From positions 1 to 20,553 of the IMG/VR virus record IMGVR_UViG_3300042889_002176: 20,553 nucleotides of DNA; one strand, given 5' to 3'. Positions 7,716 through 13,893 of the stretch are shown piece after piece. The translations under genes were made by a program, and so were the position numbers. Position 1 is the stretch's first letter. Each line of letters begins with the position of its first letter. Origin of the DNA: a virus. Lineage: Duplodnaviria > Heunggongvirae > Uroviricota > Caudoviricetes. The notes under the pieces are model-generated. The model was given only the letters and a program-made list of their open reading frames with translations. It was not told the origin of the DNA and ran no database searches.

Positions 7716-8204
7716 TTAAATGGGATAAATCAAGGCGTTTAATACTAGTTCGCTGTCGTACACACAATGTCTTTGCAAAACTTTCAACCCAACATTGCTA
7801 CGAATTATCTTGTCTTTGTAGTAACCAACATTAAAAACTTCGGTAGCGCCACGCGGTTTGGTTCTAAATACTGCATAGTTTGAAACCACGTTGTAAACAG
7901 TTTGGTTATTTTCTTGTGTAATATCTTTAAGAAGCCCAGCACCAATCACGTGCCTTGTGTAGTACGGTTGGTGAAAAATAGTATCGGTTACACCATAAAT
8001 GCGATCTTTCAACATATCCTTGCTACATAAATCAATCAACGCCAGTGGCAAGTTGCGGTCGTGATTTTCTCGAGATTGTACAACATACCGACAGTTATCT
8101 GTAAAAAAATCAATCCAGGTTGCAAAATCACCAGTGTCTAAGGACGATGCATAAGCAACATTGAGCTGGTCGAATTCAAATTGAAAATGAATTTTATCAA
8201 TCAT
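7716..8204 (-). CDS. nagH: Aromatic ring-hydroxylating oxygenase small (beta) subunit, salicylate 5-hydroxylase NagH-like
   Basis: SRENHDRNLPLALIDL.SKDMLKDRIYG..TIFHQPYYTRH, FNVGYYKD and C-terminal CVYDSELVLNALIYPI match the NagH pattern as recalled. ATGA overlap with nagG. Confidence 0.88.
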   Translation of the reverse strand: MIDKIHFQFEFDQLNVAYASSLDTGDFATWIDFFTDNCRYVVQSRENHDRNLPLALIDLCSKDMLKDRIYGVTDTIFHQPYYTRHVIGAGLLKDITQENNQTVYNVVSNYAVFRTKPRGATEVFNVGYYKDKIIRSNVGLKVLQRHCVYDSELVLNALIYPI

Positions 8205-9469
8205 ACGCCCATTATTTTCCTATAGTATTGATACATTCCTCGTATTAGAGTTTCAGTAATCATGTGATCTGTTTGCTCTATGTCTGCTCCGCCTAGTTCG
8301 GCCAGGGCCTGACTATCAACAGGTGCTTGATTAAATCCGTGTTGACTTAATTCTATCACTTCTCCGTCATCGGCACTGACAAATCCTGCAGGCCCAAATA
8401 AATTTGATTGATTCAATCTGCGCTCAGTTAGTTCTTTGCTGTCGTCCTTAAATCCAAAATGCGTCCAGGTAAATTCAAATTGGTTGTTGCCCTTAGGCAC
8501 AATGTGACGAGTGCTCATACTGTTTACTTGTTGCTGTATAATAACACTAGGAAACAATGTCAGCATAGTATTAGTAGGCATAATTTCATTATCTGAAAAT
8601 GGATCTTTGGTCGTCCACCATGCTTCTGTTTCAACATCAAGCAATCGCAGATCATTTAATTTCATTTTGGGTTTAAAACTTTCAACGCCCTTGGTCACTT
8701 CGTTTTCAACACCTTGATTGCCACGTATATTAAGCATAACTGCATGTCGACCAGTTTCGTCCTGCACCATACGACTTTTTTGATCAGCTCTAAATAATCC
8801 AAAGGTAACAAACCAGGTATGTAACAGCCCCGGATGATAAGGATCCTTGATATTTTCCATCATCAGTTTCCAGTTACCGGGTATCTGTTGTCTATTGTAG
8901 CCTAGTAACACTAGTTCTCGGCCTTTGAAAATGCGGTCAATCCATGGCATGATGCGCGGCCCAAAATATTCTTCTATTGATTCAGTTTTGTCGCTAAACG
9001 TAGCAAAGATCATTCCGTGCAGTGTTGCCACTCTTAGTTTGTTTAATCCGTGTTGCTCAATATCAAAATCCTTGGGCATTCCGCCCTTGATCTCACCATC
9101 TTTGTTTACACCGTGCTGAAACGGTAGGCTATGTAAGTCCCCGTTTAACTTGTAGCGCCACTGATGATACGGACATAAAAAATGTTTGGTATTGCCGTGA
9201 TTTTTTTGACAAAATTTAACTCCACGATGGGCACAACGATTTTCAAAAACATGAATGTTATCATCATGATCACGGCTAACAATTACTTCTCGTTCACCAA
9301 CCCAAGACAATTTAAAATCTCCTGCATTTGGGATCTCGCATGCTAAACCTACATACACCCAATGGGGTCCGTACCAGATTTGTTCTAATTCCTGTTGATA
9401 TATTTCAGGGTCGGTGTAAACCCAGTAAGGTATTTTGCTAGTATCGTTGCGTGGCCAAGACTTGGTCAT
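8201..9469 (-). CDS. nagG: Rieske aromatic ring-hydroxylating oxygenase large (alpha) subunit, salicylate 5-hydroxylase NagG-like
   Basis: Rieske ligands NRCAHRG and CPYHQW. Mononuclear Fe motif NWKLMMENIKDPYHPGLLHTWF and NLFGPAGFVSADDGEVIE. C-terminal DHMITETLIRGMY. These closely match recalled Ralstonia U2 NagG. Confidence 0.92.
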   Translation of the reverse strand: MTKSWPRNDTSKIPYWVYTDPEIYQQELEQIWYGPHWVYVGLACEIPNAGDFKLSWVGEREVIVSRDHDDNIHVFENRCAHRGVKFCQKNHGNTKHFLCPYHQWRYKLNGDLHSLPFQHGVNKDGEIKGGMPKDFDIEQHGLNKLRVATLHGMIFATFSDKTESIEEYFGPRIMPWIDRIFKGRELVLLGYNRQQIPGNWKLMMENIKDPYHPGLLHTWFVTFGLFRADQKSRMVQDETGRHAVMLNIRGNQGVENEVTKGVESFKPKMKLNDLRLLDVETEAWWTTKDPFSDNEIMPTNTMLTLFPSVIIQQQVNSMSTRHIVPKGNNQFEFTWTHFGFKDDSKELTERRLNQSNLFGPAGFVSADDGEVIELSQHGFNQAPVDSQALAELGGADIEQTDHMITETLIRGMYQYYRKIMGV

Positions 9470-11963: not shown

Positions 11964-12980
11964 TTATAGAGTCTGATAGATCTTCAACAGCAATTTGTTA
12001 TCGTAGAATTCTGATTCGATGTTGGTGATCTGATCTGTGACGATCTGATCTACTGATTCAAATTTGACTTCACCTGGCGCAAGGTCTTCGCCTACCTCAG
12101 ATGTCTTGTTTGGAATCAGGGCCATTTCACGCAGATCATAATCCCGAATAAACGTTTCTTTGATAAAGTTGGCTTCTTCGTAGCTGATCTCGATGTCAAG
12201 ATTCACACGCACATGCATCTTGGGCGCCAGCAAAGCAGCAGCATTATCAATCAAGTTGGCCAGTCCATACACCCGATACCTGGGCTGATCTGGCCAAGCA
12301 TGAAATTCAGGTTCCCGGCCCCATTCCAGGATCATCATGCCGCGATCATCGTCTCCGGCATCTGCATAGTTGTGCGGAAAACAGTTGCCAATGTAGGTGA
12401 TATTCTTTTTGGTTTGACGCTTGTGAAAATGGCCGGTGAACACATGTTCAAACCCGGTGAAGTCTTCTCGTTGCACCTCGCCGTGATCGGGCATTTCGAT
12501 CTGTGCATTCATCAAGTAACCGGGCAGTTCAAAGTGCCCAAACATGTACTTGCCGGTTAGTTTGGGTATGCGTTTATGATCGTCGGCACACAACCACGGA
12601 GCAATAGTAACATTGCCGTCGCTAAACCAATCGTTACATATAGTAACATTTGAAAGATGTTTGGCCCACTCCACACTTTGAATATCACGTTTGTCCCGAT
12701 AATACAAATCGTGATTACCAGGAATAAAATACACCTGTTCAAAGTTGTCATTCATATGTTCCAAGGCTTGTAGGCTGTAGTTCAGCGTGACAATGTTTAG
12801 ACTGGCACGATTGTTGTGCCAGTCACCTAGGAACATGCAGGTTTCGCAGCCCTGTTCCTGGGCCTTGGCCGTGGCCCATTTCACAAAGTTCAGGCAGTCT
12901 TCGTTGTGAAGTTGACTGTTTGATTTGAGTCCAAAGTGGATGTCAGTAAAGACGGCTGCTTTTTTAAATAGATTACTCAT
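11964..12980 (-). CDS. gp47: Mre11/SbcD-like recombination nuclease, T4 gp47 homolog
   Basis: Metallophosphoesterase motifs FTDIHFG, FLGDWH, PGNHD, FGHFE, FTGHFH. Confidence 0.95.
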   Translation of the reverse strand: MSNLFKKAAVFTDIHFGLKSNSQLHNEDCLNFVKWATAKAQEQGCETCMFLGDWHNNRASLNIVTLNYSLQALEHMNDNFEQVYFIPGNHDLYYRDKRDIQSVEWAKHLSNVTICNDWFSDGNVTIAPWLCADDHKRIPKLTGKYMFGHFELPGYLMNAQIEMPDHGEVQREDFTGFEHVFTGHFHKRQTKKNITYIGNCFPHNYADAGDDDRGMMILEWGREPEFHAWPDQPRYRVYGLANLIDNAAALLAPKMHVRVNLDIEISYEEANFIKETFIRDYDLREMALIPNKTSEVGEDLAPGEVKFESVDQIVTDQITNIESEFYDNKLLLKIYQTL

Positions 12981-13893
12981 CTAGTGAGTTTACTACATCG
13001 TCTAGACTACTCACAACCGGTCCGGACATGGCAGCCATGCTTTTGCTTCCGGAGTTTTGCCGAGTCCAGGATGGGTTCAGACCATTGATCTCCAGGATGT
13101 CATCACGGATGTTTTGATTTTTCTTTTCAATGTTCAGGATGCGAGTAAAGCTGTTGGTGATGGCAGCGGTGTAGTAAGCAAAGGGATTTTGACTTTTGCT
13201 TTCATCAAACTGTAGTCCAATCTGTGATAACTGTAGCAGTGCTTGTCCCCGCATTTCTTCGTTGTAGGTGTAGCCGCGCCAGTTTGATCTAGTGGCATAG
13301 CGTTCACACAGTTTCATAAACATCATGGCCAATTTACGAGTCATGTTGCCATGATCTCTGCAGAATTCACCTGTGGCCAAGTCGCCCTTCCAGTGACTGC
13401 GACCCACCATGAATGTGGTTTTGTCTTCATTTAATCGATAGTGTTCAAATGGTGGAAAGTTCAGTCTCACATGATTCATGTCCAGCACAGGCTCATCGAT
13501 CAGGTCGGCCAATGGGTCATCTTCGGTGACATCATCCAGATCTAGAATTTCTTCTAGCTTGCGTTTTTTGGCTTCGGCTTTGGTGATCTTTTTGGGAGCC
13601 ATGGGAATATGATCCCATGCAGTGATACGAAACACCAGATCGGTGTTGGCAATCTTTTTCTGATCAATCACTTGACCGGTTTCTCGTTTGATACGGTCTG
13701 CTCGTGCCTTGCGAGCTTCCACAATAGTGCGCTGGTTGATCTTGTCAACAGTGGGCAAAATAAGATCGTATTGATGGTCGAGGTCTCGGTCTCGGTACCA
13801 GCAGTAGGTGTTTTTGCTGGCATGTATTTCTTTGAGGATATCTCTGTTGTTGAGATAGTTAACGCGGGGAGCTGCTTTGGGTAGTAAAGACAT
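12973..13893 (-). CDS. gp55: T4 gp55-like late-transcription sigma factor
   Basis: KLCERYATRSNWRGYTYNEEMRGQALLQL...FDESKSQNPFAYYTAAITNSFTRIL resembles the gp55 core (NFSGY..EM....NFDE.K..NP.AY.T..C.NAF). Lies directly upstream of gp47. Confidence 0.85.
   Translation of the reverse strand: MSLLPKAAPRVNYLNNRDILKEIHASKNTYCWYRDRDLDHQYDLILPTVDKINQRTIVEARKARADRIKRETGQVIDQKKIANTDLVFRITAWDHIPMAPKKITKAEAKKRKLEEILDLDDVTEDDPLADLIDEPVLDMNHVRLNFPPFEHYRLNEDKTTFMVGRSHWKGDLATGEFCRDHGNMTRKLAMMFMKLCERYATRSNWRGYTYNEEMRGQALLQLSQIGLQFDESKSQNPFAYYTAAITNSFTRILNIEKKNQNIRDDILEINGLNPSWTRQNSGSKSMAAMSGPVVSSLDDVVNSLDE

Follow-up and report, generated by a model that had tools for sequence, protein, structure and literature searches.

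A phage-borne NagG-type Rieske oxygenase and its probable role in the uptake and hydroxylation of an aromatic acid by the infected host

The auxiliary genes known from phages mostly belong to photosynthesis and to nucleotide, phosphate, sulfur and central carbon metabolism. Classical examples that rely on host partners are the cyanophage phosphate-binding protein PstS and PebS with ferredoxin. Among bacteria, the closest described counterparts of the genes treated here are NagGH of Ralstonia sp. U2 (PDB 7c8z), an alpha-beta oxygenase with Rieske and 2-His-1-carboxylate ligands, and TphC-TphA2A3 of Comamonas, in which a Bug/TctC-type binding protein is paired with an alpha-beta Rieske oxygenase that is related to NagG and acts on an aromatic carboxylate. 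Here, we describe an oxygenase pair of this type in a tailed phage (Caudoviricetes). The DNA analysed, hereafter the window, is a stretch of 20,553 nucleotides that forms the first 20.5 kb of the 84.5-kb IMG/VR virus record IMGVR_UViG_3300042889_002176, whose completeness is estimated at 24%.

The phage pair shares with NagGH its two-subunit make-up and both sets of metal ligands, and the phage alpha subunit also has the carboxylate-anchoring arginine (R321, corresponding to R323 of NagG) and a pocket methionine (M245, corresponding to M257). Unlike NagG, the phage alpha has a loop that is extended by 11 residues behind the WW motif, as well as the fixed changes W226F and D332E; moreover, the pair is encoded by a phage, without the NagAa/NagAb partners, the LysR regulator or the genes of the gentisate pathway. 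With the Tph system, the locus has in common a Bug/TctC binding protein together with the oxygenase, and the terephthalate-binding protein TphC is among the best solved matches of the phage TctC protein. As with PstS and PebS, the phage would supply the specificity-determining or rate-limiting part and the host the membrane and redox partners, whereas the substrates would here be aromatic or other organic acids and the components a binding protein of the tripartite tricarboxylate transporter (TTT) type, a Rieske oxygenase and an adenylate-forming ligase of the ANL superfamily.

Under the influence of the phage, the host probably takes up an aromatic acid and hydroxylates it. Taken as a whole, the reading that we favour, with some reserve, is an auxiliary cassette for the capture, hydroxylation and activation of an aromatic acid that works through host partners. 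While the enzyme family is known, its phage lineage, its cassette partners and its host dependence are new. Searches of PubMed Central (PMC) and bioRxiv returned no report of a NagG-type oxygenase or of a Bug/TctC module in a phage, which agrees with the rarity that an earlier, sequence-only account of the window (the preliminary description) had ascribed to such enzymes among phage auxiliary genes. Nor did the literature covered by these searches describe an ANL ligase or this class of substrates for phage auxiliary genes.

Phage residence of the oxygenase genes

Open reading frames and alignments confirmed that both subunits are full length, coupled by an ATGA overlap and intact in all Rieske and iron ligands, as the preliminary description had stated. 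The flanking genes, which it had taken for core phage recombination genes, are T4-type gp47 and gp46, with gp55 and baseplate genes nearby (Table 1). Its assignment of the window to a lytic-type phage is likewise borne out, the genome being T4-like and of the jumbo type; a complete 337-kb relative carries the pair, too.

The placement of the pair was reproduced in at least seven independent contigs from different samples, and both junctions recur. In all of them (L002, L003, L004, L100, L098, L099 and one ENA/JGI contig), alpha and beta immediately precede gp46 and follow the TctC or the ANL gene. L002 is part of the complete 337-kb phage genome (G001), which has terminal repeats and shows 71% identity, while in L098, L099 and the ENA/JGI contig alpha is 95% identical to that of the window. 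A further relative, L097, lacks only alpha and beta; it is otherwise collinear with the window, with 76% nucleotide identity over gp47-ANL-TctC and again over gp46. Alpha and beta are inserted cleanly between the stop codon of TctC and the promoter of gp46.

The composition and evolution of the genes are those of phage residents. The GC content at third codon positions (GC3) of alpha is 0.36, within the range of the adjoining accessory genes (0.27–0.38), as opposed to 0.83–0.94 in the nearest bacterial homologues. The core genes gp46, gp47 and gp55, at 0.45–0.52, lie clearly above all surrounding accessory genes. A phylogeny and ratios of nonsynonymous to synonymous substitution rates (dN/dS) had been proposed as checks in the preliminary description. 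The tree, built from 103 sequences, groups all 12 alphas of phage or phage-like origin in one separate, monophyletic clade with a Shimodaira–Hasegawa-like approximate likelihood ratio (SH-aLRT) support of 100. The dN/dS values of alpha fall within 0.02–0.14 (0.02 for L003 versus L004, 0.135 for the window versus L098) and those of beta within 0.09–0.12; both genes are under strong purifying selection.

These results bear directly on the suspicion that the locus is an artefact, i.e., that phage and host DNA were wrongly joined in the assembly or that the gene is a passenger in decay. The record is indeed a metagenomic fragment of low completeness. However, the junctions are shared by independently assembled contigs, the composition is phage-like, translation of the pair is coupled to that of phage-specific genes, selection against amino acid change is strong, and all catalytic residues are intact. 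The chimeric join with host DNA, a risk already raised in the preliminary description, is effectively refuted. The oxygenase is a genuine phage auxiliary gene, as judged by its recurrence, its ameliorated composition and the purifying selection acting on it. Neither cultured nor deposited phages gave a match at the nucleotide level; the only protein matches to alpha in this set are host-like contigs of ‘Acinetobacter phage MD-2021a’ (23–30%), and TctC matches a single, unrelated TctC protein (25%).

The comparison with L098 adds a view of how the locus changes. From position 9436 to 7104 of the window, a segment that comprises alpha, beta, the following gap and the N-terminus of gp46, the two phages share 91% DNA identity. 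Upstream of 9436, the TctC and ANL proteins of L098 are only 44% and 40% identical to those of the window and their genes stand in reversed order. This mosaic pattern points to recombination between phages.

The interval between gp47 and gp46 is a variable hot-spot across L095, L096, L097, L098, L100 and L012. Depending on the phage, it contains ANL and TctC in either order, radical-S-adenosylmethionine (radical-SAM)/SPASM genes, a 499-residue protein of no assigned function and/or the oxygenase pair. A gene for a SegE-type GIY-YIG endonuclease is found downstream of gp46 in the window and in most relatives, either directly or a few genes on, and such an endonuclease could drive the exchange of cassettes. 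The gp46 product itself varies in length: it has 691 residues in the window and 693 in L097, but is about 100 residues shorter (587–589) in L002, L004 and L100.

Within this interval, the genes are tightly packed. The gp55 and gp47 genes overlap, gaps of 3 and 2 nucleotides separate gp47 from ANL and ANL from TctC, and ATGA overlaps join the TctC stop to the alpha start as well as the alpha stop to the beta start. In a promoter scan, the two best sigma-70-like matches on the minus strand coincide exactly with the only two intergenic gaps, one upstream of gp55 and the other between beta and gp46; no minus-strand terminator was found between these two gaps. The gap between beta and gp46 is nearly identical in L098. 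By this layout, six genes (gp55, gp47, ANL, TctC, alpha and beta) form a single transcription unit, of which the oxygenase pair is the tail. The pair would share a host-type promoter with gp55 and gp47, and early expression is plausible. The preliminary description had considered the pair in isolation; this view has to be revised, since alpha and beta are the variable last part of a four-gene operon, and its core, ANL-TctC, occurs in many more of these phages than the oxygenase does.

Past gp46 and outside the operon, low GC3 values (0.27–0.32) mark a separate accessory island on the minus strand. It contains a gene resembling B12-binding radical-SAM methyltransferases, a weakly aminotransferase-like gene and three proteins without a family match. 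The compact minus-strand series of gp55 to gp46 is followed by genes for the baseplate and the virion, which are encoded on the plus strand.

Table 1. Positions of genes, promoters and gaps on the window (gp, T4-type gene product; aa, amino acids)
Feature	Position	Strand	Evidence or remark
Sigma-70-like promoter TTGACA-16-TACAAT	13949-13922	-	promoter scan; upstream of gp55
gp55-like late sigma factor	12973..13893	-	phrog_12791, E 1e-74; first gene of the operon
gp47 / SbcD-Mre11-like nuclease subunit	11964..12980	-	phrog_100, E 1.5e-64, and Metallophos; upstream cassette boundary; collinear with L097, L100 and L002
Divergent ANL-superfamily adenylate-forming (AMP-binding) enzyme, 515 aa	10413..11960	-	PF00501 (borderline), motif, AlphaFold2 fold
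Bug/TctC-family periplasmic carboxylate-binding protein, 314 aa	9466..10410	-	PF03401, E 2e-34; N-terminal signal peptide
Rieske non-haem-iron oxygenase alpha, NagG subfamily, 422 aa	8201..9469	-	PF00355 and PF00848; 7c8z_A, E 7e-175
Oxygenase beta, NagH-like, 162 aa	7716..8204	-	PF00866; 7c8z_B, E 3e-40
Sigma-70-like promoter TTGTAA-17-TATAAT	7701-7673	-	promoter scan; in the beta/gp46 gap
Gap between beta and gp46, 51 nt	7665..7715	-	downstream edge of the oxygenase insertion; holds the gp46 promoter
gp46 / SbcC-Rad50-like ATPase	5589..7664	-	phrog_77, E 2.5e-98; downstream cassette boundary
Accessory island	848-5533	-	low GC3
Weakly aminotransferase-like gene	4493-5533	-	in the accessory island
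B12-binding radical-SAM methyltransferase-like gene	848-2419	-	in the accessory island
SegE-type GIY-YIG endonuclease gene	326-787		downstream of gp46

Enzyme type and substrate pocket

The alpha subunit matches the Pfam families Rieske (PF00355, E 5e-17) and Ring_hydroxyl_A (PF00848, E 3e-17), and beta matches Ring_hydroxyl_B (PF00866). The best solved matches are NagG for alpha (about 62% identity) and NagH for beta, followed in the case of alpha by the alpha subunit of terephthalate dioxygenase (TPADO) at 1e-90. The alignment of phage and bacterial homologues shows no variation at C79, H81, C99 and H102, the ligands of the Rieske cluster (CxH-x17-CxxH), at H212, H217 and D368, which ligate the iron, or at the bridging D209. 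On these grounds, alpha and beta can be assigned as a full-length Rieske oxygenase of the alpha-beta type, with an adjacent NTF2-fold beta subunit.

Six substrate-contact positions of TPADO were mapped onto the phage protein by means of pairwise alignments and the TPADO structure paper (PMC9060491), according to which R309 forms the salt bridge to the substrate carboxylate, while N224, S243 and R390 are involved in the recognition of terephthalate. TPADO V205, N224, S243, I290, R309 and R390 correspond to I207, F226, M245, M302, R321 and M403 in the phage and to Ile, Trp, Met, Met, Arg and Met in NagG. The phage pocket thus equals that of NagG at five of the six positions, including the carboxylate-anchoring arginine, the exception being F226 at the TPADO N224 contact position. 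Both W226F and D332E are present in every phage copy.

Two other assignments were considered and rejected. Because N224, S243 and R390 are replaced by F226, M245 and M403, the phage protein is not a terephthalate enzyme of the TphA2A3 type. The anthranilate 1,2-dioxygenase AndAcAd (NCBIfam NF041684/NF041685) was discarded on scores of 395 bits against a cut-off of 750 for alpha and 110 against 230 for beta. The match to the AndAc model holds at the family level only, because nag-type proteins and two further bacterial sets (group A and the Ferrovibrio group, see below) score alike, at 358–393 bits.

The pocket and its anchoring arginine place the enzyme in the NagG/AndAc/TphA2 subfamily, as a hydroxylase or dioxygenase of aryl carboxylates whose pocket is for the most part that of NagG. 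The substrate class would follow from the conserved arginine and from the agreement with NagG at five of six positions, and salicylate is a plausible substrate. As to the identification with NagGH in the preliminary description, the part that stands is that of an intact terminal oxygenase of the NagG/NagH type. What does not hold is orthology to the enzyme of the nag operon, given the lower score described below (586 versus 772 bits), the separate clade and W226F. Its placement in a naphthalene pathway is also at odds with the data, since the loop insert is common only to the phages and a non-nag paralogue and neither electron-transfer partners nor a gentisate pathway accompany the pair. In view of the non-orthology, the insert, W226F and the missing partners and pathway, the conversion of salicylate to gentisate is a reasonable guess rather than a finding.

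Bacterial relatives and descent of the phage gene

The bacterial relatives of the phage alpha occur in three main settings. Those of group C, with 56–61% identity, lie in classical nag-type clusters that contain a LysR regulator, a Rieske ferredoxin, gentisate 1,2-dioxygenase, fumarylpyruvate hydrolase and a glutathione S-transferase-type isomerase. Group A, with 61–66% identity the highest of all, is found in about 50 species of Comamonadaceae (Ramlibacter, Polaromonas, Hydrogenophaga, Caenimonas, Curvibacter and others). There the pair occupies a fixed chromosomal position among housekeeping genes, MiaA-MutL-DedA-alpha-beta-AmiC-TsaE-QueG, a conserved region into which it is inserted along with the DedA-family gene, and in the loci examined no ferredoxin, reductase or gentisate genes were found nearby. 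Polaromonas sp. JS666 has a second copy (62%) in addition to that of group A. In the Ferrovibrio group (L058, L059, L062 and L065), the pair is divergent from a full-length coenzyme A (CoA) ligase gene, and downstream of the pair come an IclR regulator and a glutamine-synthetase-like gene, a context that recalls the routes by which aromatic amines are gamma-glutamylated. JGI applies the label ‘salicylate 5-hydroxylase’ to many close homologues of the phage alpha, some of which cluster with group A.

Orthology to the Ralstonia U2 nag enzyme was rejected. When scored against the PDB entry of NagG, the group C alpha of Marinomonas (L068) reaches 772 bits, as compared with 597 for the group A paralogue and 586 for the phage protein, and the phage sequences form their own monophyletic clade. 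The 11-residue insert, which directly follows the WW motif (residues ~286–297 in the window) and precedes M302 by a few residues, is found, with similar internal sequence, only in the phage clade and in group A. Other features set the two apart. At positions invariant in nag-type proteins, group A retains 141 of 144, W226 among them, and the phages 115 of 144; an additional insert in the N-terminal domain of group A is absent from the phages. The phage gene, like group A, has no adjacent ferredoxin or reductase gene, but it is not embedded in the housekeeping synteny and differs in GC3 and in F226.

The substitution tree resolves the five lineages as a basal polytomy, and the approximately unbiased (AU) test rejects neither the constraint that joins the phages with group A nor that which joins them with the nag-type proteins (p 0.73 and 0.74). 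The only argument for a sister relation between phages and group A is the shared indel. Descent of the phage gene from a Comamonadaceae-type group A paralogue would be the most economical reading. A search of a representative library returned only proteins of at most 48% identity; phage, NagG and group A sequences apparently fall into one 50% cluster, and these matches served as outgroups only. A survey of possible hosts found 26 carriers among 401 sampled Burkholderiales genomes, which is of no help in assigning the host.

Cassette partners, host dependence and function

The binding protein of the cassette belongs to PF03401 (119.8 bits) and its translation begins with a hydrophobic signal peptide. 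Its best PDB matches, Bug27 and terephthalate-binding proteins at ~1e-26, give no ligand call. The ANL enzyme is far more divergent. It scores 29.8 bits with PF00501, against a cut-off of 29.9, while its orthologue in L002 reaches 43 bits. Nevertheless, its translation carries TSGTTGVPK, in agreement with the TSGTTGxPK motif, and the AlphaFold2 model (predicted local distance difference test, pLDDT, 85) has a complete two-domain ANL fold that matches ANL structures over the full length at E values of 1e-19 to 1e-21. It is 12–17% identical to any solved or Swiss-Prot member, and its top matches in PDB profile and fold searches are a mixture of aryl-acid, amino-acid and medium-chain or fatty-acid ligases.

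Both partners have a distribution of their own. Among 5.8 billion proteins, 73 homologues of the ANL enzyme were found, all on metagenomic or jumbo-phage contigs of up to 356 kb, and the TctC family has more than 100 relatives on such metagenomic contigs. The two genes stand between gp47 and gp46, in either order, in many phages that lack the oxygenase (L095, L096, L097 and L012). Because ANL-TctC is so widespread without it, the oxygenase would be an optional third step on an older phage module, i.e., an add-on present in a minority of these phages.

The complete genome G001 offers a wider view of the binding proteins. It encodes five Bug/TctC paralogues with signal peptides (L102 and L105–L108, at 275, 207, 212, 126 and 161 kb, respectively) and no TctA. 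In the four that lie outside the gp47-gp46 cassette (L105–L108), the N-terminal signal peptides are visible. One of these four is followed by a gene for a protein with a DctP domain, as in the binding proteins of tripartite ATP-independent periplasmic (TRAP) transporters, while another is placed back-to-back with a second AMP-binding gene and forms a second TctC-ANL pair. Judged from the translations, this phage would carry a repertoire of ‘orphan’ binding proteins.

The partners that these proteins would require are missing from the phages. In G000, G002 and the complete relative G001, no Fer2, second Rieske, Pyr_redox_2 or NAD_binding_1 domain was detected, nor were a gentisate dioxygenase, TctA or a carrier protein (PP-binding). 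Since even the complete relative lacks redox partners and TctA, oxygenase and binding protein must use host components. Likewise, any TctA/TctB partner must be derived from the host, because none of the three genomes encodes TctA. We infer that the phage draws on the redox and permease partners of its host.

From these elements, the following course can be proposed. The operon would be expressed early from its host-type promoter. In the periplasm, the secreted Bug/TctC protein would capture a salicylate-type aromatic acid with a single carboxyl group and pass it to a host TctAB permease. The phage oxygenase, assembled as alpha3-beta3 by analogy with NagGH and TPADO, would hydroxylate the ring with electrons from a host ferredoxin and reductase, and the ANL enzyme would adenylate or CoA-activate the acid or its product, which would thereby be trapped in the cell. 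We infer both the order of these steps and the benefit to the phage, which may be carbon and energy gained through dihydroxybenzoate pathways of the host or a supply of activated aryl acid.

The main rival explanation is biosynthetic tailoring. Here the ANL enzyme would activate, and the oxygenase hydroxylate, an imported or endogenous carboxylic acid, not necessarily salicylate, which ends up in a phage-specific product such as an aryl-acyl decoration of a glycan, lipid or protein made by the large enzyme islands found elsewhere in the genome. The restriction of the ANL family to phages would suit such a role, as would its weak likeness to nonribosomal peptide synthetase (NRPS)-type and aryl-acid adenylating enzymes above all others, the lack of any ring-cleavage pathway in the phage, the fixed pocket change W226F, and neighbouring and distant islands rich in radical-SAM, pyridoxal phosphate (PLP) and sugar enzymes. 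However, the cassette lies apart from those islands, the carrier protein that might be expected is absent from the three genomes, and the pocket is otherwise that of NagG. The optional presence of the oxygenase relative to ANL-TctC fits an add-on catabolic step equally well. On balance, tailoring appears rather unlikely, though it deserves to be kept in mind.

A third explanation, which the preliminary description had also raised, is the destruction of salicylate-type stress cues, inducers of the MarR type or siderophore precursors, by which the host would be kept permissive. The NagG-like pocket with its carboxylate anchor and the plausible early expression are compatible with such a function, and protective degradation of salicylate is known in bacteria (PMC4916378). 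Yet a periplasmic protein devoted to uptake and a ligase for activation are better suited to acquiring a compound than to removing it, and nothing in the data ties the cassette to a signalling pathway, which makes this explanation improbable.

Several observations also weigh against the aromatic-acid cassette that we favour. The phage alpha is not orthologous to the characterised NagG, at only about 62% identity, and its nearest cellular relatives by the insert (group A) lie outside aromatic operons. W226F and the loop insert, which is a few residues from M302 of the pocket, may shift the specificity. Furthermore, the ANL enzyme has diverged too far to indicate its substrate, and the ligand of TctC and ANL need not be aromatic, because the two genes mostly occur without the oxygenase. 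A compatible host ferredoxin, reductase and TctAB are an assumption. A broader proposal is put forward as a tentative possibility only: a giant, freshwater-type T4-like lineage may re-specify the tripartite tricarboxylate transporter of its host with phage binding proteins, to which one sub-lineage has added a ring hydroxylase.

If this broader proposal holds, aromatic acids, for instance salicylates from plants or humic matter, would be taken up and oxidized by infected cells in another way than they are treated by uninfected ones, and phages would drive a turnover of aromatic dissolved organic matter that runs on the redox partners of the host. The analysis also draws attention to a conserved, uncharacterised salicylate-hydroxylase paralogue of the Comamonadaceae that automatic pipelines label ‘salicylate 5-hydroxylase’ without evidence. 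For phage biology, the cassette offers a testable case in which two multi-component systems of the host receive from a virus nothing but their specificity components, a binding protein and a terminal oxygenase. An intact ring-hydroxylating oxygenase that selection maintains in phages, beside an uptake protein and an acid-activating enzyme, would also widen the range of host functions that viruses reprogramme, adding the import and oxidation of aromatic or organic acids.

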